This document shows positions 3,069-42,102 of a stretch of DNA of 64,000 nt, in pieces. The notes under the pieces are model-generated. The model made no database searches and was not told the DNA's origin. It saw nothing but the letters and a program-made list of their open reading frames with translations. Source of the stretch: Shigella phage CT01; the sequence record OK018184; one strand, written 5' to 3'. Both the position numbers and the translations under genes were made by a program. How positions within the stretch are numbered: position 1 is the first letter of the stretch; the number at the start of each line of letters is the position of its first letter.

Positions 3069-4268
3069 TTTTGTAATAATGTCAAACTGTTCTTTAAAGC
3101 AGAAGCTTGAATCTTGATGCTGATACAAAAATTCATAAGCTTTTTCGCGTTCACGGTCATAAAGAGCTCGGTCAGATGACAGTTCTTTAATACGCCCAAA
3201 TGTTGATTCCATGTCATTTTCATCAAACCAAACGATACCGCTATCATGAGAAATTAACGGAGTATTATCAACACGGAATTTTAAATTTTCACCAGTAGAT
3301 TTCCAAAATACTGGAATTGTTCCGCATGCACCAAGCTCGAGATGAGTGTATTCTAAAGAACGTTGTAGATATTTTTTATCTAATTTACTCAGCTGATAAC
3401 CAAATCCGGATTTACTCATACGTTCAAGCATTTCGCTATTTACATAACGGTCGAGAATTTGCGTTGGCAAATTAGGAGCAATTTTAATTTGGTCTACCTG
3501 ATGAAGACGATAATACTCGTATGGAATTCCTTTTTCTTTAATAGGAATGAATGCTGGAGAACGTTCCAGACCTTCCATAATAGTACTTAGTCCTGCAGGT
3601 TTAAGATGTTTTTCATGAAAATCAAACATCTGATAAAAGCCTTTCCATGTAGTAGTACGACCAATCCAACGGTTGATATTCATGTTAATTTCAGAAACAT
3701 CTTTCCAGTAGGTTGATCGAACCTTCGCAATATCCATAGGAGGCTGAAAGTTGTATACGGTCGGTGCTTCTTCAATATCATCAAACAGAGAAACTGTTTC
3801 TGGATACCATTCTTTCATCAGAACTTTATTAAAGTCACCATTATCAGAATGGCTAAAAATAACATCAGCTCGACGAACAGTTTCTTCTAATCCCAAATTT
3901 CGGCGTAAAGAAAGAGAAGAATGGTCATGCTGGTAAACTACAACACGAACCGAAGGTTTAATGTTATCAATAATTTTTTTATAGTTATTAATGGTGTCTT
4001 CTTCTACTGAAGTAGCAGGAACTGAATTGATAATTAGAATATCACAATCATTTACCAGCTTAAGGGTTTTATCGTATTCTTTTGCCAATAAAACTGGAAT
4101 TGAAAATGATTTATAATCATGCGCGCAATTACGAGTAAATGATTTATCTTTAGCATAAACCAAAGTTACTTCATGACCATTTTTAATAAACCAATCACGT
4201 TGCTCAAGAGAAAATTTAGTTACGCCACAACCTTCAAGACCTCGAGCCATAAAAATGCATACTTTCAT
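3066..4268 (-). CDS. a-gt: DNA alpha-glucosyltransferase (glucosylation of hydroxymethylcytosine)
   Basis: 400-aa ORF starting MKVCIFMARGLEGCGVTKFSLEQRDWFIKNGHEVTLVYAKD, matching T4 alpha-glucosyltransferase in length and sequence as recalled. Confidence 0.8.
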   Translation of the reverse strand: MKVCIFMARGLEGCGVTKFSLEQRDWFIKNGHEVTLVYAKDKSFTRNCAHDYKSFSIPVLLAKEYDKTLKLVNDCDILIINSVPATSVEEDTINNYKKIIDNIKPSVRVVVYQHDHSSLSLRRNLGLEETVRRADVIFSHSDNGDFNKVLMKEWYPETVSLFDDIEEAPTVYNFQPPMDIAKVRSTYWKDVSEINMNINRWIGRTTTWKGFYQMFDFHEKHLKPAGLSTIMEGLERSPAFIPIKEKGIPYEYYRLHQVDQIKIAPNLPTQILDRYVNSEMLERMSKSGFGYQLSKLDKKYLQRSLEYTHLELGACGTIPVFWKSTGENLKFRVDNTPLISHDSGIVWFDENDMESTFGRIKELSSDRALYDREREKAYEFLYQHQDSSFCFKEQFDIITK

Positions 4269-27771: not shown

Positions 27772-28233
27772 TCATTGAGTTTTAATTACTGCTTTAGAAG
27801 CCTTTCCTGGTAAACGACGACTGTTAATAATTGCCATCCTGCACTGAAGCGACGGGTCTTTGAACTTCGCATTAGGTTTACAAACTGTAAATCCAAGCCA
27901 AAGATTTCCATCTGTGATTTCTAAACGCCCAGGACGATATTCAACCCCATCAATAAAATCCTCGTCAATGTCAGGACGCGGAGGCATACTCAGGAATTCA
28001 TTAACTTCTAAAACATGGTCTTTTATTTTATGGAATAATTCAAAAACATATGTCTCATCAATCTCCCGTTGAATTGCACGATCAAGAAGATGCTGAGAAT
28101 ATTTTAGATGAAACGATGAGACCCCTGCTGCTTTTGATGCCTCACGAATCTCATTGTTAATTTGACGAAACTCCGACTCAAAGTGACGACGGAGTTTATT
28201 TCGACGGATAAAAACTTCTGTGTTGATAGTCAT
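27772..28233 (-). CDS. regB: RegB-like endoribonuclease
   Basis: 153-aa ORF at the regB position relative to tk and e; length matches T4 RegB as recalled. Confidence 0.55.
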   Translation of the reverse strand: MTINTEVFIRRNKLRRHFESEFRQINNEIREASKAAGVSSFHLKYSQHLLDRAIQREIDETYVFELFHKIKDHVLEVNEFLSMPPRPDIDEDFIDGVEYRPGRLEITDGNLWLGFTVCKPNAKFKDPSLQCRMAIINSRRLPGKASKAVIKTQ

Positions 28234-28258
28234 GTTATTCTCCTCTTAACTGATAGAA

Positions 28259-28292
28259 AAATTATACCACAGTCAAGAGGAAAAGTAAACAG
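28259..28292 (-). promoter_or_regulatory. T4 early-type promoter
   Basis: Minus strand reads GTTTAC, an 18-nt spacer, then TGGTATAAT. Confidence 0.5.
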
Positions 28293-28571
28293 TTATTCTT
28301 TAAATCTAATCAATTTATTCATAGACTTTGTAACTTCTGCACGAACCTCATGTAAGTTTTTAAGCTGTTCAAGACGCTGCTCATAGTAAGCAATTTCATC
28401 TTCTTCGAGACAGTCCTGTGAATCTTCTTTAAGATAACGTGCATAGTCCTGGAAAGCTTTACGGACTACTTCCTGGAAGTCATCAAGACTTTGAATTTTC
28501 TTAGGAGCAACAGATACACGACGAGGGGCAGTATAATACTCATAACCAAACCCTGCGCTTAATTGAGCCAT
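28293..28571 (-). CDS. hypothetical protein
   Basis: Internal ATG at 28571 overlapping the upstream stop; the track ORF extends to 28613. Confidence 0.4.
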
Positions 28572-28837
28572 TAATATTTTTCCTCTGGTTGAAACACAGC
28601 ACGACAAGCCCACATACTAGCTTCTTTGAGTTTCGTTTTAGCAATAGTTAACTGATCGATGCTTTCAGCATAATTCTTCGCGAATTCATAGTCTTCACAA
28701 TTATTTAGCACTTCCCAGAATTCGTCGTATAAAGCATCAAAGATAAGTCCTAAACGAACTTCAGCATCTTTGATAGCATTCACTTTACCGATTTTCTCTT
28801 CAGTATGTGGCTTATAACCCTTAATATCTTCAATCAT
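28571..28837 (-). CDS. hypothetical protein (positional candidate for a Vs.4/Acb2-like protein)
   Basis: 88-aa ORF, second gene downstream of regB; the assignment is by gene order only. Confidence 0.4.
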
Positions 28838-29051
28838 ATTTTACTTCCTCACCAGTACCTAAATCATATTCAACTAAACGAATAGGCTCATGAATGCCAT
28901 ATCCTTGAACAGAAATTTCTGTCGTAGGATAAATTCCATTAATATCACCCATGTTCCACGCTTCATTAAATTGCCGTTCGCCTGAATTACTAAACCACTC
29001 GGCGAAAGCATTTAGCACATCTTCAGAACCTTCAATAATTATCTTTGCCAT
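28830..29051 (-). CDS. hypothetical protein
   Basis: 73-aa acidic ORF. Confidence 0.45.
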   Translation of the reverse strand: MAKIIIEGSEDVLNAFAEWFSNSGERQFNEAWNMGDINGIYPTTEISVQGYGIHEPIRLVEYDLGTGEEVKYD

Positions 29052-29425
29052 TACAAACTCTCAGTAAAGGTACGAGCGATAACGTCGCGCTGCTGTTCCG
29101 GAGTCAGAGAGTTAAAACGAACTGCATAACCGGATACACGGATGGTCAACTGCGGATATTTTTCCGGATGCTTAACTGCATCTTCCAGAGTTTCACGACG
29201 CAGAACGTTAACGTTCAGGTGTTGACCACCCTCGATTTTAACTGTAGGTTGTGTTTCAATTTCAATTTCACGGGCATGCAAACCATAGAAAATTTCTGGG
29301 TCTACAAAAGAGTCCTCTTTAAAAGTTTTAGAGACAATAATTCGTGCTTGAATACCATCTTCAAAATAAATAGTACCTTTATGCGTGCCTTCAAGAATTT
29401 GATATGCTTTCATATAACCTCTCAA
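29051..29425 (-). CDS. autonomous glycyl-radical cofactor (GrcA/YfiD-like)
   Basis: 124 aa; C-terminal [60 protein letters not shown] carries the glycyl-radical motif RVSGYAV. Confidence 0.85.
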
Positions 29426-29751
29426 TTAGAAAATAAATTTATCCAAGATTGCTCTTTAATTAAAAATGGCTCAGAATCATATGCCATTAAACTTTGGGTG
29501 ATTAGTCCTTTAAAAGGTCCATCAATAAATTCCATGGCAAAATATGGAATTTTATTCATTAATCTTGCATTAGGAGCAGTGCACAAAACTCTGCATCCTT
29601 TGAATACGCCTTTTTGTAATTTGTATTGCTTAGGATAAAATTCGCTCAAGACGTTGTTATTTGCCAAAATTTCAAAATGATTCACCAATTTATTTTTAAT
29701 AGTTTTTGGCGAAAAATAAAGATATTCGAAAAGTTGCGTGTCTGTCATCAT
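29422..29751 (-). CDS. hypothetical protein
   Basis: ATG at 29751 overlapping the upstream stop (ATGA). Confidence 0.4.
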
Positions 29752-30335
29752 TGCATTCCGATTATGAAAAACTGTGGACGAGTAATACCACCAATGCAGC
29801 ATTTACTATTGCAACAGTGGTGCACAGTTTCAATATGAATATCGTAAATTTTATCCATATCAGGAGATTTAACAGGCTCATCGATTATATACAAAATCCG
29901 CGAAAGCGATAAACCTCTGAACTTGCTTCCTTTATTACCGATAAAACTACGGACAGAATCGGTAAATAAGCGGAATCGAATATCATCGCTAGAATAACGA
30001 GAAAACTCTTTTTTAATGTGGCCCGCAGAAATTTTAGCGTAAGCTGAAGTATTAGAAAGAACAATAACTGTTCCACCATCATACAGCCAATTAGCGGCAA
30101 AATTAGTTACTGCAGTTGATTTACCAGATTGACGTCCACCATCTAGTCGAAGTGTGCAATACTGTTTGAGTAAGTCTTCAAATGGTGGGATATAATCGTT
30201 TTTACAAATTTCTTCTACTCTAGCATCAGAATGGTGTGTAAAAGCATTCATCAGGGATAGATAAGGTCCAGTTAAAAATGTTCTCATTTTATTCTCTCTA
30301 AATTTGGGCCATTCCATGGCGCATGAATTGTCCAT
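29748..30335 (-). CDS. P-loop NTPase-like protein
   Basis: Walker A GGRQSGKST and Walker B-like LYIIDEP; true start is probably an internal Met. Confidence 0.45.
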   Translation of the reverse strand: MDNSCAMEWPKFRENKMRTFLTGPYLSLMNAFTHHSDARVEEICKNDYIPPFEDLLKQYCTLRLDGGRQSGKSTAVTNFAANWLYDGGTVIVLSNTSAYAKISAGHIKKEFSRYSSDDIRFRLFTDSVRSFIGNKGSKFRGLSLSRILYIIDEPVKSPDMDKIYDIHIETVHHCCNSKCCIGGITRPQFFIIGMQ

Positions 30336-30442
30336 TTCTGTATTTACCCATTACCGCACTTGGGCTCGACCTTATTACAGGTTGGCGGGAATCCCTCACA
30401 GAATCATGAGGTCCAGCTTGTTCCCATGTTATTTGAATGTAA

Positions 30443-30464
30443 ATAGGCCTAAGTATAGGCCTTA
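30443..30464 (-). terminator. hairpin downstream of ipIII
   Basis: AGGCCT...AGGCCT palindromic stem-loop right after the ipIII stop; weak U tract. Confidence 0.3.
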
Positions 30465-31046
30465 TTAATTACCACGGGCTGCATTAGCAACGGCATAAGC
30501 GTACTGAACATTAGCGTCCTTAAACGTACCTTTAGAGGTATCTATTTCTGCCTTAAAGCCGCCTTTAGCCATAACATCGGCAAATTCTTTACGGAAAGCC
30601 ATTGCATCAAGACCTTTCCATGATGATTTGTGCTTGGCGAATTCAAGACCAGCGTAGTTGACAGCCTTAGCTAATTTATTATCAATGACCCATTTACCGG
30701 CTTTAGGCACAAACTTCGGGCCTTTTTGTTTAGAGAACAGTTTTAAATTCCAGCGACGAAGATCACTGTCGGCTTTAACAAAAGCTGCATCTAAGTTACT
30801 AGCAACAACATCTTCAATATGAGCAAATTTAAGTCCATCAACTTCAATATTTAGATCGTTACGCCAGCGAAGTCCTTCCCAAGCGAAGGCTTTAAAATCA
30901 GAAGCTTTTGTGGCTAGATATCGTTCAAGTGGAGCAGTTTTAGGGTCAAAACCGTTTCCGCCACGATAAGTCCACTCATCTTTATTAATGCCTTTGGCCT
31001 TTACTACAGAAGCTTCAGCAATAAATTCTTGATACGTTTTGAACAT
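30465..31046 (-). CDS. ipIII: internal protein III
   Basis: ATG at 31046 gives a 193-aa protein beginning [12 protein letters not shown], the capsid-targeting leader with a prohead-protease-type cleavage site. Confidence 0.7.
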
Positions 31047-31172
31047 GTTTACGGACTGCACCAAATACGCGTGGTAATTCACGATACTCTGCCATAAGAT
31101 GTTGGTCGGTCAGTTCAGAAACAAGTGTTAAATTGATACGAGTCATAATTTCCTCCAAGTAGTTGATGAATG

Positions 31173-31204
31173 TATAGTATCAAAGTCCTTGGAGGAAGTA
31201 AACA

Positions 31205-31205
<1 letters not shown>
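31173..31205 (-). promoter_or_regulatory. T4 early-type promoter upstream of ipIII
   Basis: Minus strand reads GTTTAC, a 17-nt spacer, then TGATACTAT. Confidence 0.45.
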
Positions 31206-32007
<802 letters not shown>

Positions 32008-32463
32008 TTAAAAGAGGCTGTTCATTATTCGGTAAAGTGAAGGGCCCATCACATATTGCCACTGGGTATGAGGAATAAGAGCAAAAGCATCCATCTCTGG
32101 AATCATAACGCCATCTTTATTTTCAAAATAAGACTCGCAATGGCAATTTCTAAACATCTCATGCTCTACTGGAATCGTATAATAAAATAACTGTAAGTCT
32201 TTATTACTAGAATATTTAAATACACCTAGGTCTTCTAGAAGGTCTGGATTATAATTGCTAAAGCCAGTCTCTTCTAAACATTCTCTTCGTGCTGCATCTA
32301 GCGCGCTTAAATCAGAATTTTCTACACGGCCCTTTGGAATATCCCAGCGATGGGCCATCATTCCAGGCTTACGAGAACCAGTAACCCGTCCCATGAATAA
32401 ATCTTTATCTTCTGTCATAAAGATAATACCAGCTGATAGTGTTTTCATTTTAATTTCCTGCAT
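32008..32463 (-). CDS. nudE: Nudix hydrolase
   Basis: 151 aa with Nudix box GRVENSDLSALDAARRECLEETG. Confidence 0.8.
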   Translation of the reverse strand: MQEIKMKTLSAGIIFMTEDKDLFMGRVTGSRKPGMMAHRWDIPKGRVENSDLSALDAARRECLEETGFSNYNPDLLEDLGVFKYSSNKDLQLFYYTIPVEHEMFRNCHCESYFENKDGVMIPEMDAFALIPHTQWQYVMGPSLYRIMNSLF

Positions 32464-32933
32464 TCAGTGATAAAGTTATTTAAATTTTGAGTATATTTCT
32501 TTTCATCAAAAATCTTTTGTTGTCTGCGTAGCCGCCATGGCATTTCTATGAACGTGTACCATATCCCAGATAATATTGCTGCTGTAAAAATATTAACAAG
32601 TATGGTTAAAAGAATCCAATCTCCTATTCTGTCCATTGGATTTTTTATAAAAAAGTAAAATATGAATGATGTCACAGGAAGACTAATAATATACCACAGA
32701 ATCATAATTTTATCTGTGAACCAATCAGCGTTCGTTAACTTAGCGCGACCATTATAAATACACACGAATTTATCATCTGTTGCAGTAGATGGCTTAACTG
32801 GTTGATATCCCATTCTAAACTCCCTAATTAACAAATTTTTCATATCTTCGGAACAGCCATTCCAGTCAACTCTATCAACTGGAATGCCATCATCCCCATC
32901 ATCTAAATCATACCAGCGAGTTTTTAAAATCAT
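32445..32933 (-). CDS. hypothetical membrane protein, tail-motif family member
   Basis: 162 aa with two hydrophobic helices; C-terminal motif NNFITECRKLK. Confidence 0.5.
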   Translation of the reverse strand: MILKTRWYDLDDGDDGIPVDRVDWNGCSEDMKNLLIREFRMGYQPVKPSTATDDKFVCIYNGRAKLTNADWFTDKIMILWYIISLPVTSFIFYFFIKNPMDRIGDWILLTILVNIFTAAILSGIWYTFIEMPWRLRRQQKIFDEKKYTQNLNNFITECRKLK

Positions 32934-33292
32934 TTAATTTTCCTACAATCACTCACAAACTCTTCCATTGATTCTTTTTCAATATAAGACATGTAGTTAT
33001 TATATTCCTTTAATTGTATTTTGTAATCCTTTTTTCTTTGCCAATTTATTTTAAAATTATCATAATGAAAATATAGCATGGTGCCAAAGAATGAAAATAA
33101 TGAAATCGCTATAGTATAACGAAGTTCACTCCAAACTTCTATTATATTTACTGTGCCGTCAATGTTTAAAATAAGACAGTCAATTAACAATCCAAAAAGA
33201 CTACCCGCAAGAGCTGCAGCCAACGCCACAGCAAAAATTAAAAATGACTCAGGAAGCGAATATTTGACTTTATTTAGTTTTGGCTTTTGCAT
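32930..33292 (-). CDS. hypothetical membrane protein, tail-motif family member
   Basis: 120 aa with two hydrophobic helices; C-terminal motif EEFVSDCRKIK. Confidence 0.5.
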   Translation of the reverse strand: MQKPKLNKVKYSLPESFLIFAVALAAALAGSLFGLLIDCLILNIDGTVNIIEVWSELRYTIAISLFSFFGTMLYFHYDNFKINWQRKKDYKIQLKEYNNYMSYIEKESMEEFVSDCRKIK

Positions 33293-33687
33293 CGTGATTC
33301 CTTAACAAATTTCATAATTTCATCAAATTCATATGCAGCAAGTTTAAGCTGGTGTTCCTTTTTAATCTTTTTGCACTGTGCTTTCCAATCACGTACGCGT
33401 TTACGATAATGTCTTCCTTGATACCAGTATCCTACCCAATTTACAGGTACTAATAAAAATGGAACTACTAATGGAAGAATTAATACTGACAGAAATATTA
33501 CACCAGATTCAATATCAGTCATAACGTCTATAACCATTCCAATAATCAATAGAATTACAAATGATATAGCTGTCACAGGACCTATTAATACATCGGTAGA
33601 AATTATCTGGTGCTTTGGTTCATACTTCAAAGGTTTACTTGGAAGGTATAGTAATGGCTTTGACATATTCTCTACATTCCTTAACAA
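33274..33687 (-). CDS. hypothetical membrane protein, tail-motif family member
   Basis: 137 aa with two hydrophobic helices; C-terminal motif MKFVKESRCK. Confidence 0.5.
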   Translation of the reverse strand: MLRNVENMSKPLLYLPSKPLKYEPKHQIISTDVLIGPVTAISFVILLIIGMVIDVMTDIESGVIFLSVLILPLVVPFLLVPVNWVGYWYQGRHYRKRVRDWKAQCKKIKKEHQLKLAAYEFDEIMKFVKESRCKSQN

Positions 33688-34249
33688 ATTTTTCTAGTAA
33701 TAAATCGCTTTCAAAATTAGGATTTTCCACGAATTTATCAAAAAGATCATCAATAATAGTCAAGATATTCCTTTTATTAAGAATACGCTTATTTTCATAT
33801 TTTGTTTCAGAGTCAACTATAAGAGTAAAGAAATATTTCTTTCCCTGAAATTTTACCGTAGTATCAATATAAAATAAATTTGACTTTTGTAAATTACGTC
33901 TAAACCACGCGTCACTTAAACTATAAACGCCAAGATAATCATAATCGTCATTTAAATAACAAACTGTCCATTCAGGAGAAATGAAATCAGTAAATTCAAC
34001 ATCAAAATCACACGTCAATGAATGAATTGATTCAATACTGTTAATGAGTATTCCAGGACGTATTAAAGACTTTTTACCTCTAGAAAATCTTCCAGAAAGA
34101 CTTTCATCAGTTTCATATGAAGACCCCCAATAGTAATTACGTCCTTCTGCCATACGTTTAAGAGCATTTAGTAATTGGTCTGGAACATCAACCTGTCTTT
34201 GGAACTCTTCAAACATTGAATTGAAATCACTTTGCATTTTCATTTTCAT
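33635..34249 (-). CDS. hypothetical soluble protein sharing the C-terminal motif
   Basis: 204 aa; C-terminal EKFVKECREYVK. Confidence 0.5.
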   Translation of the reverse strand: MKMKMQSDFNSMFEEFQRQVDVPDQLLNALKRMAEGRNYYWGSSYETDESLSGRFSRGKKSLIRPGILINSIESIHSLTCDFDVEFTDFISPEWTVCYLNDDYDYLGVYSLSDAWFRRNLQKSNLFYIDTTVKFQGKKYFFTLIVDSETKYENKRILNKRNILTIIDDLFDKFVENPNFESDLLLEKFVKECREYVKAITIPSK

Positions 34250-34267
34250 TCCTATTTACTCCAAGTA

Positions 34268-34287
34268 TAAGGGGCCGAAGCCCCTTA
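34268..34287 (-). terminator. hairpin terminator
   Basis: AAGGGGC-CGAA-GCCCCTT stem-loop right after the stop at 34291. Confidence 0.4.
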
Positions 34288-34290
34288 TCA

Positions 34291-34884
34291 TTATTTCAGA
34301 GAATTAATGTATTCCTGAACATCGGCAGAGGTAGTTTCAACCCCGGAAATATTACCGTTAAAGGTTTCAACTCGAGCAAGAGTATCTTCAATATCAACCT
34401 TAGTTAGCGCTGCAATTTCAACTACATCATCGGCAGTACTAATTCCAAGGGCATTTGCCGCACGAGTTTCACGGATATATTCCAATTTAACCGCAAGTTC
34501 TTGGCGAGCATCATCTAACTCAACTACTTTCTTGGCGATTTCAATTCGCATTTCAGCATAACCATCAGCTTTAGTAGTCAACTGCTCAGCTGTTCGACGA
34601 TATAGTAAACCGAGCTTAGCATGCATTGTTACATCTTGACCTTCGGAAAGAAGTTTGCGAATTTCACACTCTTTTGATTCGGCTTGTCGATTCTTTTCGA
34701 TAACAAGTTCACGAATACGTTTTTCTTCATTAATAGATTTAACAGAAGCAGTTTTTAGGTCTTTAATTTTATCAAGAAGTTTTGCTGCTGCAGCAGTATA
34801 CTGTTCTTCAACAGATAGATTTTTAGCCATAGCAGAACCAAGTTTAGTGCGAATAAACTCAACAATTTTCTTCAGTGTGTTCAT
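34291..34884 (-). CDS. coiled-coil protein (possibly PspA/IM30-like)
   Basis: 197-aa all-helical protein with heptad repeats; the family assignment is tentative. Confidence 0.45.
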
Positions 34885-34927
34885 AGTATTTCCTTAGGTT
34901 GATTAAAAATTAAAATCTGTGGAAGAA

Positions 34928-35458
34928 TTATATCATGCTATTTAAGAGATGTAAACTATTTTTAATTTTACAAATTCGTTCAGCTTCTTCAACAGCGGCG
35001 GCGATAATGCTTTTAGCTATAGGAGTACTAATACTAGTAGCTTTTACACTTAACACGATTTCTTTATCTTTACCAGGCCAACCCCACGATTTTTCACCGT
35101 GAGTGCCTTTAATTACAGCAGACACCTCAAGTGAGCATCCATTATCATATGTTTTTACATTGACAACCCAAGGTTCACTTTTCTCAATCGGTTTCTCAAT
35201 CGGTTTATCCCAGTAAATATTAAGAATACGTGGGACATCAAATTTGGCAGGACAAATCTTAACTGTAAGACCTTCGCTTTCTAGCCAATTAATAAGAGGG
35301 CGTTCATACAGGCGACGATGTGGGCTTGGGATTCGACAAGCCTTATGTCCGTTGCTTGCGGCTTCACTAAGCTGTTCTAATACCTGCTTTTGCATTATTG
35401 ATAAGATACCATCAAAAGATTTTTCGGAAGTTTCATTCAGTTCGGTATAAAGAGACAT
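34928..35458 (-). CDS. hypothetical protein
   Basis: 176-aa ORF. Confidence 0.5.
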   Translation of the reverse strand: MSLYTELNETSEKSFDGILSIMQKQVLEQLSEAASNGHKACRIPSPHRRLYERPLINWLESEGLTVKICPAKFDVPRILNIYWDKPIEKPIEKSEPWVVNVKTYDNGCSLEVSAVIKGTHGEKSWGWPGKDKEIVLSVKATSISTPIAKSIIAAAVEEAERICKIKNSLHLLNSMI

Positions 35459-35481
35459 AACAGTTTCCTCAAATTATAGGC

Positions 35482-35515
35482 TCATAATATCTCAATCATG
35501 AGCCTATGTAAACTT
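35482..35515 (-). promoter_or_regulatory. T4 early-type promoter candidate
   Basis: Minus strand reads GTTTAC, an 18-nt spacer, then TATTAT; overlaps an inverted repeat AGGCTCAT/ATGAGCCT. Confidence 0.35.
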
Positions 35516-35777
35516 ATTTCATATTATTAAAATATTCTTCTGCGATTTCGTCGTTATCATGGTAAACTTTAGAAGACAGTTTAACATAACCTTCAGCAGT
35601 GAACATGTTAATCACAACCTTTACAGTATACCACTGACCATCTTCATTACCCATTACTGCGTAAGTTTCAAACATCGGATGGTCAGGACCGATAACTTTA
35701 ATATCATTCACTGTACGACCGAAATCTTCTGAAACGCATTTCATAAAGAAGTTGAACAGTTCGCCGTAATTATCCAT
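35514..35777 (-). CDS. hypothetical protein
   Basis: Internal ATG at 35777 (MDNYGELFNFF...) placed downstream of the promoter; the track ORF extends to 35831. Confidence 0.45.
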   Translation of the reverse strand: MDNYGELFNFFMKCVSEDFGRTVNDIKVIGPDHPMFETYAVMGNEDGQWYTVKVVINMFTAEGYVKLSSKVYHDNDEIAEEYFNNMK

Positions 35778-35819
35778 TTCATTCTCCAAGTTGTTTTTCT
35801 GTATCAGTAGTTGATAGTT

Positions 35820-35852
35820 GTATAGTACCATGGAAGAACGGGGATGTAAACC
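35820..35852 (-). promoter_or_regulatory. T4 early-type promoter
   Basis: Minus strand reads GTTTAC, a 17-nt spacer, then TGGTACTAT. Confidence 0.45.
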
Positions 35853-35984
35853 GTTTTGTGAAAAAATTTTTAAAAAGTTTTAGGGAATTCTAGGGCAGGG
35901 ATGGGCAATTAAAAGGTAGGATAATATATTATAAAGGGTATAAACTAAATGATGCCTAGAGAGGTCTGGAAAGGCCTAGATACC

Positions 35985-36006
35985 AAAAAGCCCTATCATT
36001 TAGATA
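35985..36006 (-). terminator. hairpin terminator
   Basis: CCCTATC-TAAAT-GATAGGG stem-loop followed on the minus strand by CUUUUUGG. Confidence 0.5.
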
Positions 36007-36017
36007 GGGATTTAAAA

Positions 36018-36506
36018 TTATTTACCTAGTTTAGTTATTATAGCTTCGGCAGCAGCTTTTAGCTTAGATGCAGTGTTAATACGATTTTTAATTTCAGTAT
36101 AAGCATCGCCAAGAACATCAAGGCTATCAGAATAAACACTTACACTATTGCGTTCGCTATTTGAAATAGAACCTTTAGTTTTACGATCAAAATCGGTATA
36201 CACGTCTTGAAGATCACGGGCTGCCTTCTTTGCATCATCCAATGCATCAAGAGCTTTATTCAAAGCATTGACATATTTTTTAGTGTCAAACATATTCTTA
36301 GAAATTTTGAAAAATGCTTTATTGAAATTATTTTCTTGACTCATCGTAAAAGAACTATTATCGATGTTATACATTTCAATAGCTTTAGCTTTCCACTTAA
36401 GAAAATCGCCCCGGTCTTTTGGGTCCAAGTGGAAGAATACTTTAGTAAGATCTGCTTCAGATGGTAATTTTGCTGCTTCGGTTAAAAATTCGGCATAAGT
36501 TTTCAT
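36018..36506 (-). CDS. internal-protein-like protein with capsid-targeting leader
   Basis: 162 aa beginning MKTYAEFLTEA, the same leader type as ipII and ipIII (Leu at P3, Glu at P1); lysine/alanine-rich. Confidence 0.55.
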   Translation of the reverse strand: MKTYAEFLTEAAKLPSEADLTKVFFHLDPKDRGDFLKWKAKAIEMYNIDNSSFTMSQENNFNKAFFKISKNMFDTKKYVNALNKALDALDDAKKAARDLQDVYTDFDRKTKGSISNSERNSVSVYSDSLDVLGDAYTEIKNRINTASKLKAAAEAIITKLGK

Positions 36507-36589
36507 TTAAAATCCTTGAAATAATTTATTGGTTATTAATTATTTATCACGTTGTTATCATCCATGTTAGCATTCTCTGAGTGATTCAA

Positions 36590-36620
36590 ACTAAAAAGCC
36601 CCAACCTTTCGGTCGGGGCT
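36590..36620 (-). terminator. intrinsic terminator downstream of the tRNA/RNA region
   Basis: AGCCCC...GGGGCT stem-loop followed on the minus strand by UUUUUAG. Confidence 0.55.
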
Positions 36621-36625
36621 AAGCC

Positions 36626-36930
36626 TTGCGGCAACCTTGTCGGGGTTCCACCTGCTAAGGCAAGTGTTTGTACGAAACGCCGGGATTCGAACCCGGTTAT
36701 TAAGTAGTTGACGCTACTCAATATTTTTAAAAGGCCATATCTCGACCATATCCGAACGTTCCGTCAAAAACGCTACTCGGCTTACGGCAAAGATATTTCC
36801 TCGAATCGATAATTCGGTGCGCCGTTTCTGCTGTGATAGTAAAGAATCAGAACACAGTAAAACTGTGGGAGAAACTATACTCCAGGGAACATCAGTCCGA
36901 CGACTTACCGGTAGCGACCCGGTTTCTTAG
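36626..36930 (-). ncRNA. candidate stable RNA with a tRNA-like T-arm (species 1/2-like)
   Basis: No credible ORF; minus strand contains CCGGGTTCGAATCCCGG preceded by an AGTAG/CTACT stem and ends at the terminator. Confidence 0.3.
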
Positions 36931-37277
36931 TATTCTTTTAAAGCATCAACCTGTCCACGACGTTTACGCCATAAATCAATTACTTCATACGCAGATTCAG
37001 CATTTCGAATTGGACGGCATTTATATAAAGACTTGTGATTTTGATATTGTGTAGATAATGGAATTTTATCTAAAAGGTCTTTACGTTCAAAGTATTCGTA
37101 ACCATCTAAACCAAATGAACGATTTTTGAGAAATTGCCAATGACCGTATTCGTTTTCGACATAAACATAATCTGCATGCTGATAAAGTAAATTAATTACA
37201 CGTTCAGAAATAACAGTGTCATTGTGATTAAAATAGAATGTTAAATCATGAACTACTAAATAAACATTACCTTTCAT
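36927..37277 (-). CDS. hypothetical protein
   Basis: 116-aa ORF between tRNA-Arg and the RNA-like region. Confidence 0.4.
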   Translation of the reverse strand: MKGNVYLVVHDLTFYFNHNDTVISERVINLLYQHADYVYVENEYGHWQFLKNRSFGLDGYEYFERKDLLDKIPLSTQYQNHKSLYKCRPIRNAESAYEVIDLWRKRRGQVDALKEY

Positions 37278-37293
37278 ATTTTCCTCACTTAAT

Positions 37294-37369
37294 TGGTCGA
37301 GGCAGTAGGGATCGAACCTACGACCTAGGACTTAGAAGGTCCTTGCTCTTCCTTCTGAGCTATGCCTCG
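37294..37369 (-). tRNA. tRNA-Arg (anticodon TCT)
   Basis: Hand-folded cloverleaf: acceptor CGAGGCA/TGCCTCG, anticodon loop CTTCTAA, T-loop TTCGATC, encoded CCA. Confidence 0.85.
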
Positions 37370-37373
37370 GATT

Positions 37374-37448
37374 TGGCGGACGTGATAGGATTCGAACCTA
37401 TAACCAATCGCTTAACAGGCGATCGCTCTGCCATTGAGCTACACATCC
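37374..37448 (-). tRNA. tRNA-Asn (anticodon GTT)
   Basis: Acceptor GGATGTG/CACGTCC, anticodon loop CTGTTAA, T-loop TTCGAAT, encoded CCA. Confidence 0.8.
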
Positions 37449-37452
37449 AAAT

Positions 37453-37539
37453 TGGTGGGGAGTGGTGGAGTCGAACCACCCGAGTCGCAATGACAATGGA
37501 TTTACAGTCCACACCGCTACCTCTACGGGATAACTCCCC
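37453..37539 (-). tRNA. tRNA-Tyr (anticodon GTA), class II
   Basis: Acceptor GGGGAGT/ACTCCCC, anticodon loop CTGTAAA, long variable arm, T-loop TTCGACT, encoded CCA. Confidence 0.8.
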
Positions 37540-37548
37540 AAATTAATT

Positions 37549-37623
37549 TGGTGGCCCTGGGTGGAATTGAACCACCATCTGGCGATTATGAGTCGCTTGC
37601 TTGAACCTTCCAGCTACAGGGCC
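37549..37623 (-). tRNA. tRNA with CAT anticodon (Ile if lysidine-modified, otherwise Met)
   Basis: Acceptor GGCCCTG/CAGGGCC, anticodon loop CTCATAA, encoded CCA; at the position of T4 tRNA-Ile. Confidence 0.75.
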
Positions 37624-37624
37624 T

Positions 37625-37700
37625 TGGTGCTGATTGACGGAATCGAACCGCCGACCTTCTCATTACAAGTGAGTTGCTCTACCTACTGAGCTAAATCAGC
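37625..37700 (-). tRNA. tRNA-Thr (anticodon TGT)
   Basis: Acceptor GCTGATT/AATCAGC, anticodon loop CTTGTAA, T-loop TTCGATT, encoded CCA. Confidence 0.85.
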
Positions 37701-37705
37701 AAAAC

Positions 37706-37795
37706 TGGCGGAGGCGATAGGATTTGAACCTATGAGTCGCCGGAGCGACTGCCGGTTTTCAAGACCGGTGCATTAAACCACTCTGCCACGCCTCC
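37706..37795 (-). tRNA. tRNA-Ser (anticodon TGA), class II
   Basis: Acceptor GGAGGCG/CGCCTCC, anticodon loop CTTGAAA, long variable arm, encoded CCA. Confidence 0.85.
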
Positions 37796-37797
37796 AG

Positions 37798-37871
37798 TCT
37801 CCATACAAGGATTTGAACCTTGGACCTCCTGATCCCAAATCAGGCGCTCTACCAAACTGAGCTACACGGAG
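37798..37871 (-). tRNA. tRNA-Pro (anticodon TGG), CCA not encoded
   Basis: Acceptor CTCCGTG/TATGGAG, anticodon loop TTTGGGA, T-loop TTCAAAT; abuts tRNA-Ser with a 2-nt spacer. Confidence 0.8.
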
Positions 37872-37881
37872 TAAATTAAAT

Positions 37882-37955
<74 letters not shown>

Positions 37956-37960
37956 AAATT

Positions 37961-38047
37961 TGGTGCGAGAAGTGGGACTCGAACCCACAAGGAAATCATT
38001 CCGCAGCATTTTAAGTGCTGTGCCTTTACCAATTTGACCATTCTCGC
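37961..38047 (-). tRNA. tRNA-Leu (anticodon TAA), class II
   Basis: Acceptor GCGAGAA/TTCTCGC, anticodon loop CTTAAAA, long variable arm, encoded CCA. Confidence 0.85.
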
Positions 38048-38048
38048 G

Positions 38049-38115
38049 CTGGGAATAAAGGACTCGAACCTTTGCATCCTGGAATCAAAATCCAGTGCCT
38101 TACCAATAACTCCCC
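38049..38115 (-). pseudogene. chimeric tRNA remnant: 3' 58 nt of tRNA-Gln joined to the first 10 nt of tRNA-Tyr
   Basis: Identical to the intact tRNA-Gln at 38625-38697 over its 3' part, but the 5' acceptor and D-arm are replaced by GGGGAGTTAT at the duplication junction. Confidence 0.7.
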
Positions 38116-38124
38116 AAATTAATT

Positions 38125-38199
38125 TGGTGGCCCTGGGTGGAATTGAACCACCATCTGGCGATTATGAGTCGCTTGCTTGAACCTTCCAGCTACAGGGCC
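38125..38199 (-). tRNA. tRNA with CAT anticodon, duplicate copy
   Basis: Identical to 37549-37623, shifted by 576 bp. Confidence 0.75.
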
Positions 38200-38200
38200 T

Positions 38201-38276
38201 TGGTGCTGATTGACGGAATCGAACCGCCGACCTTCTCATTACAAGTGAGTTGCTCTACCTACTGAGCTAAATCAGC
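38201..38276 (-). tRNA. tRNA-Thr (TGT), duplicate copy
   Basis: Identical to 37625-37700, shifted by 576 bp. Confidence 0.85.
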
Positions 38277-38281
38277 AAAAC

Positions 38282-38371
38282 TGGCGGAGGCGATAGGATT
38301 TGAACCTATGAGTCGCCGGAGCGACTGCCGGTTTTCAAGACCGGTGCATTAAACCACTCTGCCACGCCTCC
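38282..38371 (-). tRNA. tRNA-Ser (TGA), duplicate copy
   Basis: Identical to 37706-37795, shifted by 576 bp. Confidence 0.85.
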
Positions 38372-38373
38372 AG

Positions 38374-38447
38374 TCTCCATACAAGGATTTGAACCTTGGA
38401 CCTCCTGATCCCAAATCAGGCGCTCTACCAAACTGAGCTACACGGAG
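38374..38447 (-). tRNA. tRNA-Pro (TGG), duplicate copy
   Basis: Identical to 37798-37871, shifted by 576 bp. Confidence 0.8.
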
Positions 38448-38457
38448 TAAATTAAAT

Positions 38458-38531
<74 letters not shown>

Positions 38532-38536
38532 AAATT

Positions 38537-38623
38537 TGGTGCGAGAAGTGGGACTCGAACCCACAAGGAAATCATTCCGCAGCATTTTAAGTGCTGTGCC
38601 TTTACCAATTTGACCATTCTCGC
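38537..38623 (-). tRNA. tRNA-Leu (TAA), duplicate copy
   Basis: Identical to 37961-38047, shifted by 576 bp. Confidence 0.85.
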
Positions 38624-38624
38624 G

Positions 38625-38697
38625 CTGGGAATAAAGGACTCGAACCTTTGCATCCTGGAATCAAAATCCAGTGCCTTACCAACTTGGCTAATTCCCA
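38625..38697 (-). tRNA. tRNA-Gln (anticodon TTG), intact copy, CCA not encoded
   Basis: Acceptor TGGGAAT/ATTCCCA, anticodon loop TTTTGAT, T-loop TTCGAGT; abuts tRNA-Leu with a 1-nt spacer. Confidence 0.8.
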
Positions 38698-38794
38698 ATT
38701 ATTAACAAAGGCTCTCAAACAAGAACCCTTGATGATAGAGGGTATTAATCAGTGCGATATGAGTTAATAATAACAAATAATTCTTAAAGCATAT

Positions 38795-39082
38795 TTACCA
38801 TTTATGATAATACATATTTACGATGCATTCAAGACCCAAAGGATTCTTGAAAATATCATATTCAAGAGGACCTTTTTCCGTTTCAATAAAGAAATCAAAA
38901 TTTACTGTATTAAATTTACGGTCTTCCTTCACTAATTTAACTTGAGAAGATGAACGATCAATGTAAACCTTTTCAACTTCAAAACATGTTAAAATGCCAT
39001 AATCATCAATCAAGGCTTTAGCTGCTTCTTGATCATATTTATATCCATTTTCAATGGATGATACTTTCGCATAAAGAATCAT
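38795..39082 (-). CDS. hypothetical protein
   Basis: 95-aa ORF. Confidence 0.45.
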   Translation of the reverse strand: MILYAKVSSIENGYKYDQEAAKALIDDYGILTCFEVEKVYIDRSSSQVKLVKEDRKFNTVNFDFFIETEKGPLEYDIFKNPLGLECIVNMYYHKW

Positions 39083-39084
39083 TA

Positions 39085-39489
39085 TTAACCTTTATCAACA
39101 ATAGTATGTGTATGGGCATTTACGATTTGCCACCAGTCAAAACTATCGCCAAATCGTTTTGATTTATTGTCTTCAATAATTTGGCGTAATTCATCTTCTG
39201 TTTCAGCATACGCAATCAAATCATCATATCCACCGCAAGGATAGTAATTATCGCCTGCGAACAAAAGAAAATTTACTTTAGATGGGTCTACATAATAATG
39301 CTCTTTAGGATATTTAGTTCCTTTCCAATCAGTTACTTCAACATAACGATAAGAAAATCCATTTTTACTTTCAACCCAACTCCACGCTTCAAAAGGAGTA
39401 TTAAAAACTCTATCAGGTATTAAATTACCTTCAAAATGAGAAGGATTTGCATAATCCCCAGCATAAACATAATATTCGTTAATATTCAT
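39085..39489 (-). CDS. hypothetical protein
   Basis: 134-aa ORF rich in aromatic residues. Confidence 0.45.
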   Translation of the reverse strand: MNINEYYVYAGDYANPSHFEGNLIPDRVFNTPFEAWSWVESKNGFSYRYVEVTDWKGTKYPKEHYYVDPSKVNFLLFAGDNYYPCGGYDDLIAYAETEDELRQIIEDNKSKRFGDSFDWWQIVNAHTHTIVDKG

Positions 39490-39675
39490 TTATTCACCTT
39501 TAGAAATTTTATCCATAACAATAGCGATTAAACCAATTAAAAATGCTACTACAAGTGAAAAAACATTTTCTGCTGTAGTCAATAATCCACATATAAATCC
39601 AACAAACATTGAAAAACTAAAAGCAGAAGCAGAAATTGCAATAGCAACATTTCGAATTAATTCACAACGTTTCAT
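39490..39675 (-). CDS. small membrane protein
   Basis: 61 aa, almost entirely hydrophobic. Confidence 0.4.
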   Translation of the reverse strand: MKRCELIRNVAIAISASAFSFSMFVGFICGLLTTAENVFSLVVAFLIGLIAIVMDKISKGE

Positions 39676-39701
39676 TTTATTCTCCTCAGTAGTTGATAGG
39701 G

Positions 39702-39735
39702 TAATAGTATCACAACTAAAACCCTATGTAAACAA
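39702..39735 (-). promoter_or_regulatory. T4 early-type promoter
   Basis: Minus strand reads GTTTAC, an 18-nt spacer, then TGATACTAT. Confidence 0.45.
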
Positions 39736-39751
39736 CTTTGTGAAATATTTA

Positions 39752-40039
39752 TTACAAAAGATTTTTAGCAATAATCTTGAGATGTGCCGCAGAAATGTGT
39801 TTAGCTTTAAACAACGCAGTTTCTTCAGCAGGAGAGATAATGATTGTAGCACCATCCTTTTTAGCAGACCACCCATCACCTAGGTAAACAGTACCTTTGA
39901 TTTCTTCGCCATCAACCAAACTAATCATTGGTTTACCTTCTCGTCCTTTATTTGCTTTAATAACTTCAGAAGTAAGAGTAGCTTCAGTAATAGTAGAAAC
40001 CGGGGTAGTTGTAGAAGTAAATTCTTTGAAAGTTTTCAT
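39752..40039 (-). CDS. ipI: internal protein I-like protein
   Basis: 95 aa beginning MKTFKEF with a leader ending ITE-A; sits directly upstream of 57B as ipI does in T4. Confidence 0.55.
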   Translation of the reverse strand: MKTFKEFTSTTTPVSTITEATLTSEVIKANKGREGKPMISLVDGEEIKGTVYLGDGWSAKKDGATIIISPAEETALFKAKHISAAHLKIIAKNLL

Positions 40040-40067
40040 TTTATTTTCCTAATTAATTTTGATGAGA

Positions 40068-40101
40068 TAATAGTATCACTACCTCATCAACGTGTAAACA
40101 A
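40068..40101 (-). promoter_or_regulatory. T4 early-type promoter upstream of the ipI-like gene
   Basis: Minus strand reads GTTTAC, an 18-nt spacer, then TGATACTAT. Confidence 0.45.
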
Positions 40102-40111
40102 CTTTGTGAAA

Positions 40112-40808
<697 letters not shown>

Positions 40809-40809
<1 letters not shown>

Positions 40810-41522
40810 TATAGTACCTTTAGTGTATTTTTAATTTTAGAAAAAAGTTCTTCAAGAGAACCATCATTTGTAATTACTAAATCACCATCACGAATTGGCA
40901 ATCCAGCTTCTGTAATATGAGTATCATTGGATTTTTGACCAGGACGAACTACATGAATTACTGTAGCACCCATCGCCCTAGCCGCATCCATTTCATGATC
41001 TTGACGAGTATCAGGAACGATATAATAATCATAACCTGAATTAAATTTATCAAGATAATCTAAAGCAAATAATTTTACCCAATACATGCGGTCGAAGTTA
41101 TTAACAATCAAATCCGTACCTAGGGCTTGCATCAGACGACGGACTGACCATTGATCTTCAATATTATTTATAACGTCAGCAATCTTGTTAAATGCTACGA
41201 AATTAACTGCGTCATCAAAAACAAACACACCTTTAATTGGGCTTTTACTATTAAGATAGCAAAATGCTTGTTCCATAATCGTAATTACTTCTAATTTAGT
41301 CAGATTTAAATTAGTCTCACGATCATAGTCAATTCCTTCAAACTCTTTACGAGTTAAGCAAGGATAGTCAGTGTTTGCTGCAAATACACCCCATGCATAA
41401 GCCAATGCATCCTTAATAGGACCAGCAAGTTGATATTTAACTGCAGAATAATTATTCATAATAAAATCTGCAGTAGTATCTTTTCCACTACGCTTTACAC
41501 CACTTAAAAAGATTAGTTTCAT
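40809..41522 (-). CDS. 1: deoxynucleoside monophosphate kinase
   Basis: 237 aa with P-loop GVKRSGKDT; matches T4 gp1 as recalled. Confidence 0.85.
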
Positions 41523-41571
41523 ATGTTTCTCCTCAAATTTAGTTAAGATTATAACACATGAAACTGAAGCA

Positions 41572-42102
41572 TTAAACTTCTGCTATAATTTTGCCATCTT
41601 TTTCTACTTGAAAATACGTATAAGGAATCGTTGCTGTACATACTAAAGCTGGGTCTGAATCTTCCGTGTAGCTAAATTCTACTTCAGACAGGTCAGAAAC
41701 CCAAGGCTTATAAAAATTTATTGACATCACGATTTCAGTTTTACTGTTATCTAAAATGTAAAGCGTAATGTATTCAGGACCTGTTTTTTGGGCAGTATTT
41801 TCGCCTGTAAGATAGTTACTAGTTCCTAGCATCCATTCATACATTCCTATCCACGACTTAAGCTCTTCATCAACTATAAATCTCACAATGAGTGGGTCGT
41901 ACTCAAATGTAACTCCTGGACGCTGTGCTCGGCCTAGTCCAAACGGCCCAGTCACGGTATCAGTAACAGGTATCCTAATTCCCGGAATAGGAACTGACTG
42001 AGCATTTAAAGTAAAAGCAGATGTAGTATTACTATGTGGTATTGATACTACAAAGTTAGTTGTATTTGCTTGGTTAAAAATTTGTTGTAGTGCTTGCGAC
42101 AT
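41572..42102 (-). CDS. 3: gp3 tail completion / sheath stabilizer
   Basis: 176 aa from the ATG at 42102 preceded by GAGGAA; begins MSQALQQIFNQANTTNF; the track ORF is a 5' extension. Confidence 0.7.
   Translation of the reverse strand: MSQALQQIFNQANTTNFVVSIPHSNTTSAFTLNAQSVPIPGIRIPVTDTVTGPFGLGRAQRPGVTFEYDPLIVRFIVDEELKSWIGMYEWMLGTSNYLTGENTAQKTGPEYITLYILDNSKTEIVMSINFYKPWVSDLSEVEFSYTEDSDPALVCTATIPYTYFQVEKDGKIIAEV

Follow-up and report, generated by a model that had tools for sequence, protein, structure and literature searches.

An unnamed cassette gene of Shigella phage CT01 as a candidate injected internal protein of T-even-type phages

The 64,000-nucleotide stretch of Shigella phage CT01 analysed here (sequence record OK018184; 'the window' below) contains, at positions 36018-36506 of the minus strand, an open reading frame (ORF) for a protein of 162 amino acids, referred to as type A. 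On balance, this ORF is best explained as the gene of a previously unnamed internal protein of T-even-type phages, packaged into the head and injected with the DNA, with a possible role in counter-defence. The parts of this explanation differ in strength: packaging and processing of type A, read from its sequence, are quite probable; a counter-defence function of any kind, argued from analogy, has about an even chance; and specific inhibition of a GmrSD-type enzyme, again an analogy, appears doubtful.

Results

The type A gene and its distribution

The gene is represented in the window by the following features:
36018-36506, minus strand: coding sequence (CDS) of type A, 162 codons with an ATG start, ortholog of RB14ncORF136c and member of PHROG 2280
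36477-36506, minus strand: predicted capsid-targeting sequence MKTYAEFLTE, codons 1-10, with gp21 cleavage predicted after Glu10
36513-36517, minus strand: Shine-Dalgarno sequence AAGGA, read directly, 6 nt before the ATG and kept in all orthologs

The translation, read from the sequence, starts MKTYAEFLTEAAKLPSEADL / MKTYAEFLTEAAKL, and the 162-residue product beginning MKTYAEFLTEA that was described in an earlier, sequence-only reading of this DNA is present on the minus strand, with an ATG and a Shine-Dalgarno sequence. The ORF is a real gene under strong purifying selection. The ratio of non-synonymous to synonymous substitution rates (dN/dS) is 0.03-0.08 against orthologs, including the most diverged orthologs fetched, encoded on the metagenomic contigs L007 and L008 (186 aa; dS 0.73-0.94, dN/dS 0.06-0.08). 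Compared with phage RB14, four synonymous and no non-synonymous differences were found, and the 162 residues retained in the window are 100% identical. Two plus-strand ORFs overlapping the gene, 36207-36467 and 36364-36498, were dismissed as spurious.

The window is, as judged from its sequence, a segment of a Tequatrovirus (T4-like) genome, with about 97% identity to the Escherichia phages EcNP1 and Nami across the 14-kb stretch 28000-42000. The type A protein is present in 164 phage records (tblastn), belonging to Escherichia, Shigella, Yersinia, Citrobacter and Salmonella phages, and in every record listed it is annotated as hypothetical or as 'phage protein' (for example, RB14ncORF136c and Shfl2p135). 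Frameshifted copies were found in G29, OE5505 and RB69. The gene is absent from T4, as seen in the alignment of the gap between e.8 and rnaC and in the T4 annotation, which has no CDS there. The protein matches the profile of PHROG 2280, a family with no assigned function, over its full length (E 1.5e-44, residues 1-156 against profile positions 1-178). A word-index homology search returned close orthologs only. An exhaustive profile search of 1.84 billion proteins returned 14 proteins, which indicates that the family formed by type A and its sister type B, described below, is narrow; the fetched members of those 14 are type A relatives, type B relatives or fusion fragments, with no homolog of Ip1-3 among them. 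Across the type A/B family, the listed records either call the product hypothetical or carry no annotation for it. No paper describing the type A/B family was found in the literature, and full-text searches by locus tag gave nothing relevant.

Capsid-targeting leader and prohead-protease site

The precursor has the N-terminus MKTYAEFLTEAAK. Its first ten residues are identical to the leader of T4 IPII/IPIII at seven of ten positions (M1, K2, T3, Y4, E6, F7, E10); position 8 carries the conservative replacement of Ile by Leu, and the residue at P1', Ala, is the same. Residues 1-10 of IPIII suffice for encapsidation, and foreign proteins are packaged by the 10-residue signal alone (PMC9026906, review of Black's work). 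In IPIII, residues 4 and 7 are the main determinants of targeting and processing depends on residues 8 and 10; gp21, the prohead protease, cleaves behind the motif L/I-x-E (PMC9026906). Replacing Glu10 of IPIII by Asp prevents cleavage and leaves packaging intact. Both targeting residues of the T4 signal, Tyr4 and Phe7, are present in MKTYAEFLTE. The Leu at P3 (Leu8) and the Glu at P1 (Glu10) pointed out in the sequence-only reading are there as claimed, and Leu8-Thr9-Glu10 is the sole L/I-x-E motif of the 162-residue protein. Cleavage by gp21 is predicted to make Ala11 the new N-terminus, with the mature protein starting AAKLPSEADLTK.

When the target is aligned with its orthologs and with the sister family of 157 aa, M1, K2, Y4, F7 and E10 do not vary and L8 hardly does; the five constant residues represent 5 of the 13 invariant columns, all five lying within residues 1-10. 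The most distant relatives detected by profile search (P0024, P0026 and P0028) start MLKFNEFLAE, MLEYSEFLKE and MKFKEFLIE, in the same pattern. Variation of the leader within the family is confined to the functionally tolerant positions 3, 5, 6 and 9, and synonymous changes within the leader were found in Nami (codon 3, ACT/ACC; codon 8, TTA/TTG). This combination of synonymous nucleotide changes and restricted variation shows the leader to be constrained as a peptide, and not a relic of recombination. Translated in six frames, the window contains the motif M(x)KT[YF]xEF four times; in 100 dinucleotide-matched simulated windows it never appeared (mean 0.0), so that the four occurrences are far beyond chance.

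The predicted mature protein

The mature product is predicted to have 152 residues, a mass of 17.1 kDa and an isoelectric point (pI) of 9.1, with 21 Lys and 5 Arg against 22 Asp plus Glu and a net charge of +4. Its size and charge are within the range of IPI-III and of Ip4 and Ip5 of RB14. The protein is small, basic and polymorphic among T-even phages, being absent from T4, present in 164 records and frameshifted in three.

Models were made with AlphaFold2 for the 162-aa protein of the window and for the 187-aa form found in other phages; they were used for secondary structure only, because their predicted local distance difference test (pLDDT) scores are 56-57. Both models are all-helical with two domains, a low-confidence prediction. 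In the 187-aa model, residues 4-73 are helical, residues 74-99 are non-helical, and a C-terminal helical hairpin is formed by residues 100-134 and 141-186.

Homology and structure searches, which the sequence-only reading had proposed as a check, gave orthologs and membership of PHROG 2280, and no relative of characterised function. The search of NCBIfam was empty, no PDB sequence scored below E 0.1 in a profile search, and Foldseek against PDB gave no match at E <= 0.001, with generic coiled-coil or hairpin proteins only. The PHROG families annotated as 'internal virion/head protein' gave weak N-terminal matches only: phrog_8765 to residues 1-60 (E 0.015) and phrog_2667 to residues 1-21 (E 0.51). 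Pfam yielded matches below threshold only (Cytochrome b562, E 0.0026, 18.8 bits against a cut-off of 30), and these were rejected as a generic helical resemblance.

Cassette structure, insertion site and promoter

The gene lies in a cassette with these components:
35985-36592, minus strand: whole cassette, 608 bp, which T4 lacks, as an alignment to its e.8-rnaC gap shows; GGGCTTTTT marks either junction
36593-36620, minus strand: upstream border of the cassette, formed by the intrinsic terminator (AGCCCCGACCGAAAGGTTGGGGC, then T5) that belongs to the rnaC homolog
36541-36548, minus strand: late-promoter variant GATAAATA, with one mismatch (at -13) to the T4 late promoter TATAAATA
35985-36009, minus strand: intrinsic terminator of the type A gene itself, CCCTATCTAAATGATAGGGC followed by T5, the downstream border

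The order is terminator, late-promoter variant, Shine-Dalgarno sequence, gene and terminator, and the insertion is exactly at the rnaC terminator. Upstream of the gene, the rnaD and rnaC homologs end in the terminator AGCCCCGACCGAAAGGTTGGGGCTTTTT (36620-36593). Downstream of the second terminator, the early promoter of e.8 (35850-35822) is followed by the e.8 coding sequence. In T4, the rnaC terminator runs straight into the sequence that in the window follows the second terminator; this continuity marks 35985-36592 as a discrete cassette. The site, between the rnaC terminator and the e.8 promoter, lies outside both recognised ip loci (ipI by 57B; ipII/III by e/denV). Location in an ip locus is typical, not defining, for internal proteins.

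Four states of the site were found: empty (T4), A only (RB14 and the window), B only (fD1), and B plus A (Nami). In many relatives, among them Nami, VIPECOOM01 and G29, the second cassette (type B) stands in tandem just upstream of the first and is flanked by a repeat of the 33-nt terminator sequence. The A and B cassettes are proposed to come and go at the rnaC terminator when repeated terminator sequences recombine with each other. In VIPECOOM01 (L004), the terminator upstream of type A has its loop and inner stem inverted, CCCCGACCTTTCGGTCGGGG versus CCCCGACCGAAAGGTTGGGG; the hairpin is kept despite the inversion, which is consistent with selection on structure.

The last base of GATAAATA lies 35 nt upstream of the ATG, and across the target and its orthologs the element is found at 35-40 nt. 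The window and RB14 have GATAAATA, and Nami, VIPECOOM01 and L007 have AATAAATA, despite diverged flanks. A late promoter with A at -13 was found in 9 of 50 cases in T4 (Geiduschek and Kassavetis, PMC2988020), and position -13 is poorly conserved in late promoters of T4-like phages (Nolan et al., PMC1524935). The heptamer ATAAATA occurs 19 times in the 64-kb window, counting both strands, which gives an expectation of about 0.009 per 60-nt upstream stretch. The position and conservation of the element suggest that the type A gene is transcribed late from a dedicated promoter, as fits a head component. No convincing middle promoter (MotA box) or sigma-70 early promoter was identified upstream of the gene.

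The sister family, type B

The type B cassette occupies the same insertion site and carries the exact TATAAATA immediately after the terminator. Its product has 157 aa, with the leader MKSYAQFLNEA, and begins MKSYAQFLNEAVLNEA; it is found in 512 phage records, including T4-like phages of Klebsiella and Enterobacter. Examples are g140 of Yersinia phage fD1 (157 aa), which carries type B only, and QXV73376 of Nami. BLASTP did not align the mature part of type A with that of type B. Their C-terminal hairpins are weakly matched by hhalign, including the motif IK[ND]RIxxA (E 2e-4 to 3e-3, probability 10-47%). The two types are called paralogs because the leader, the C-terminal hairpin, the PHROG and the locus are common to both. 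The product g140 is listed as particle-associated, above the strict threshold, in the analysis of purified fD1 particles with liquid chromatography coupled to tandem mass spectrometry (PMC8309999 Table S3).

Chimeric ORFs joining fragments of type A or B to NudE or to the tRNA.3 protein were found in metagenomic sequences (P0012, P0022, P0023); they are evidence of large natural deletions across the hyperplastic region.

The linker-deletion allele of the window

The type A copy of the window is shorter than its homologs, and the junction is marked by one feature:
36295-36308, minus strand: AAAATTTCTAAGAA, the lone remaining copy of a 14-nt direct repeat, at the junction of a 75-nt in-frame deletion

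The deleted 75 nt, which encode the 25 residues KISKKLASGAQVPKSALATPERAPV, lie precisely between two AAAATTTCTAAGAA copies. In the 187-aa form these are residues 67-91, which overlap the linker predicted to be non-helical (74-99); the part removed is mainly a segment rich in Pro, Ala, Ser and Gly that is predicted, at low confidence, to be non-helical. All homologs listed have 186-188 aa, and the deletion is present in 0 of 164 phage records. The exact 162-aa protein was absent from these records, from the homology search and from an exact-match index of about 15 billion proteins. The linker of type B is also shorter at the equivalent place.

Comparison with known internal proteins and cassettes

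At least 10 internal proteins of T-even phages, encoded in two loci, have been reported, and Ip1, Ip2 and Ip3 have been shown to be inhibitors of GmrSD type IV restriction enzymes, each of a different one (Silas et al. 2025, PMC12373910), Ip2 acting on GmrSD of ECOR21 and Ip3 on that of ECOR17 (PMC12373910). T-even internal proteins have long been regarded as a diverse set with the capsid-targeting leader alone in common (PMC3012670).

Type A resembles IPII and IPIII in its nearly identical 10-residue leader, the same gp21 motif, the small, basic, non-essential and polymorphic product, and the position of the gene on the early-strand side of the e/tRNA hyperplastic region. It differs in that its mature part is dissimilar in sequence, its gene lies in the rnaC-e.8 gap and not beside e/denV, and a terminator and a late-type promoter stand in front of this gene, where the IPII and IPIII genes have an early promoter. 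With IPI* (Ip1), the inhibitor of GmrSD of E. coli CT596, type A would share delivery of a pre-made, head-packaged protein co-injected with the DNA; the leader of IPI measures 19 residues and its alpha/beta fold 76, whereas type A is twice as long and is predicted to be all-helical with two domains. Like Ip4-Ip10 (Repoila et al. 1994, cited in PMC12373910), type A is polymorphic, belongs to no known family and is recognised by its N-terminal signal only. It appears to be set apart from Ip4-Ip10 by its locus and annotation, and not by a comparison of sequences; the RB14 annotators named Ip4 and Ip5 yet left type A as 'ncORF136c hypothetical'. The sequence traits of an internal protein, the third site and the absence of a name beside Ip4 and Ip5 together place type A as a probable new family among the internal proteins.

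Type B has the same kind of leader and the same design (terminator, late promoter, gene, terminator) as type A, but an unrelated N-terminal mature domain, a perfect TATAAATA and a duplicated cleavage motif (FLNE, VLNE); it is also the commoner of the two (512 versus 164 records) and the one detected with virions. PeSL (promoter-early stem-loop) cassettes of T4-type hyperplastic regions (PMC2839356, PMC4122927) likewise consist of a single accessory gene with its own promoter between repeated GGGG...CCCC stem-loop terminators, and gain or loss exactly at the repeated elements resembles their modular shuffling (PMC2839356). The promoter of type A is of the late (gp55) type, whereas that of PeSL is a sigma-70-like early promoter.

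Other internal-protein genes and the neighbourhood

Three further genes of the internal-protein type are encoded in the window:
39752-40039, minus strand: ipI, one substitution relative to T4 IPI
31205-31486, minus strand: 93-aa ORF immediately downstream of e; it carries a capsid-targeting leader, outside which it is unrelated to T4 IPII
30465-31046, minus strand: ipIII ortholog with an aberrant MFKTY start resulting from a denV-ipIII deletion

The sequence-only reading had likened the leader of type A to those of 'ipII' and 'ipIII' in the window. Both ORFs are present, and the label 'ipII' is imprecise, since the leader is all that the 93-aa ORF has in common with T4 IPII. This ORF overlaps the stop codon of the lysozyme gene e and is annotated as 'putative internal head protein' in Nami; its product, with a pI of 6.3, is near-neutral and not basic, and contains four L/I-x-E motifs, which end at residues 10, 15, 30 and 40.

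The gene denV, encoding endonuclease V, is truncated (31015-31144, minus strand): its first ~35 codons run out of frame into the ipIII leader and then meet a stop. The lesion is a deletion of about 640 bp relative to Nami; it lies between ...CATGTTCAAAACG in denV and CATGAAAACG in ipIII and takes away most of denV and an 84-aa ORF. With an ATG taken over from denV, the ipIII gene of the window now begins MFKTYQEF and lacks both a promoter and a Shine-Dalgarno sequence of its own. In Nami (L003), the 84-aa ORF (3106-3360, minus strand) lies between denV and ipIII and has a leader-like N-terminus without Lys-Thr; it is possibly another, degenerate, internal-protein gene.

The tRNA cluster (37530-38700, minus strand) contains an exact tandem duplication with a 576-bp period, in which 38106-38405 repeats 37530-37829 at 100% identity. 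Two copies of the block Met(CAT)/Ile-Thr-Ser-Pro-Gly-Leu result, the tRNA genes number 16 in total, and a weak tRNA-like match was found at the duplication junction (38049-38116). A single block is present in the relatives examined, Nami, RB14, G29 and T4. At 36650-36930 (minus strand) lie rnaD and rnaC homologs, which correspond to species 2 and 1 of the T4 stable RNAs; they were not called by ARAGORN, and no covering Rfam family was reported. The G29 annotation places a 94-nt 'tRNA-Lys(ttt)' in part of this region. A 61-aa ORF overlapping rnaC (36536-36721) was dismissed as spurious. Between tRNA-Arg and rnaD, a 116-aa ORF is encoded (36927-37277, minus strand; phrog_3355 in VIPECOOM01); T4 has no gene at this site, which makes the ORF another cassette-like insertion in the tRNA region.

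Discussion

Proposed pathway

The claim of the sequence-only reading that 36018-36506 is an additional internal-protein-like gene with a capsid-targeting leader is supported, as far as sequence goes, by the determinants of the leader and their invariance across divergent family members, the purifying selection, the late-promoter variant, the small basic product and the listing of the type B protein among particle-associated proteins of fD1. As sequence and conservation suggest, the gene would be transcribed late from its own GATAAATA variant between two terminators. The leader MKTYAEFLTE would direct the 162-aa precursor into the prohead scaffolding core, as its identity with IPIII at positions 4 and 7 implies, and gp21 would then cut after Leu8-Thr9-Glu10, so that a 152-aa, 17-kDa, lysine-rich helical protein would stay in the DNA-filled head. 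Injected with the DNA, it would act before phage gene expression and would most likely neutralise a DNA-targeting host defence, the leading candidate, by analogy with Ip1, Ip2 and Ip3, being a particular variant of GmrSD/type IV. The site would hold two alternative or tandem cassettes (A, 187 aa; B, 157 aa), the A copy of the window having lost its inter-domain linker. The suggestion of a counter-defence effector, made in the sequence-only reading, fits by analogy the current knowledge of Ip1-3; the role remains an analogy because the mature part is unlike any characterised protein.

A bolder version, which we regard as rather unlikely, is that the rnaC-e.8 gap represents a third, unrecognised ip locus of swappable late-promoter cassettes, the helical products of which would block a defence other than the GmrSD defence countered by Ip1-3. 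Candidate targets in that case would be another class of modification-dependent nuclease or an abortive-infection sensor acting in the first seconds.

Evidence on the other side and alternative explanations

Several observations weigh against type A as an injected counter-defence protein. Neither Ip1-3 nor any entry of Pfam, NCBIfam or PDB is similar to the mature part, and the AlphaFold2 models, built on a shallow family alignment, reach a pLDDT of 57 (162-aa) and 56 (187-aa), which is low confidence. The promoter is off consensus, with G at -13, and the GTTTAC-type early promoter that precedes each of T4 ipI, ipII and ipIII does not precede this gene. A dN/dS of about 0.07 represents strong purifying selection, which is not the usual signature of an arms-race protein. 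Among 15 GmrSD groups, no reproducible inhibition was obtained with ip4-10 (PMC12373910), and the rule that an internal protein implies a GmrSD inhibitor is therefore not general. No proteome of a type A phage was found in the literature, and the paper on fPS-65 and fPS-90, which carry type A, contains no virion proteome. In the fD1 dataset, 137 of 277 gene products (49%) were detected, including DenV, lysozyme and NudE (PMC8309999). Since half of the products were detected and the protein concerned is a paralog, the term 'particle-associated' is supportive but unspecific, and the support is weak. Finally, the 25-aa deletion could have inactivated the copy of the window.

This last point leads to an allele-specific explanation, to which a low probability is assigned: the family would be functional, and the window would carry a decaying or inactive allele in which the 75-nt deletion fuses the two domains and abolishes function. 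The deletion is private to the window, being found in none of the 164 records and yielding a protein absent from the ~15 billion indexed; frameshifted copies occur in other phages, and the same genome has other local lesions, namely the truncated denV and the missing cassette B. However, the deletion is in frame and mainly removes the Pro/Ala/Ser/Gly-rich segment predicted, at low confidence, to be non-helical; the remaining 162 residues are identical to those of RB14, with only four synonymous differences; and the shorter linker of type B at the equivalent place argues in the same direction.

The protein might also be packaged and play a structural or physico-chemical role: being a helical polycation rich in lysine, it would neutralise and order the condensed DNA or aid its exit, as IPII and IPIII were for many years supposed to do. 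Its pI of 9.1, the 21 Lys among 152 residues, the long predicted helices without an enzyme-like fold and the strong purifying selection would suit this role, and solid-state nuclear magnetic resonance has shown lysines of internal proteins in contact with DNA phosphates (PMC3012670). Yet the net charge is merely +4 (26 Lys and Arg against 22 Asp and Glu), all three T4 internal proteins, formerly thought structural, proved to be specific restriction inhibitors (PMC12373910), and the gene is absent from T4 and many relatives and pseudogenised in several, so that type A cannot be a general requirement of packaging. We hold a structural role to be improbable. A non-essential accessory of the prohead core or scaffold, which would enter by means of the leader, affect head assembly and be degraded or expelled at maturation, is extremely unlikely: the core proteins gp22, gp67 and gp68 are likewise substrates of gp21 (PMC9026906), and the predicted structure is helical and coiled-coil-like as in scaffolding proteins, but core proteins destined for removal are cut into several fragments (PMC9026906), whereas type A has a single L/I-x-E site at residue 10, and T4-type phages with identical heads can do without the gene.

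The remaining alternative denies packaging altogether and treats the leader as a relic of recombination among ip-type genes, the product being an ordinary cytoplasmic late protein. The virion evidence concerns type B, the locus is outside the two classical ip loci, and the region is recombinationally active, with chimeric fusions in metagenomes. Against this, the leader is conserved as a protein through synonymous changes, with substitutions only at positions 3, 5, 6 and 9; the 10-residue signal of T4 alone packages foreign proteins (PMC9026906); paralog B was found with particles; and a dedicated late promoter fits a head component. This alternative is considered very unlikely, and a packaged, processed and injected internal protein is retained as the preferred explanation of type A.

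Implications

Injected internal proteins are the sole phage weapons already present at DNA entry. For five further active GmrSD groups no inhibitor is known, nor is a target known for ip4-10 (PMC12373910); types A and B represent two ready candidates against such orphan defences and extend the map of effector loci. The linker-deleted allele of the window provides a ready-made natural structure-function variant. For the finding of more effectors, a search rule is suggested: a terminator, a late promoter and then a leader of the form MK[TS][YF]x[EQ]F[LI]xE. To a specialist in T4 the finding is unsurprising, yet it is concrete and directly testable.

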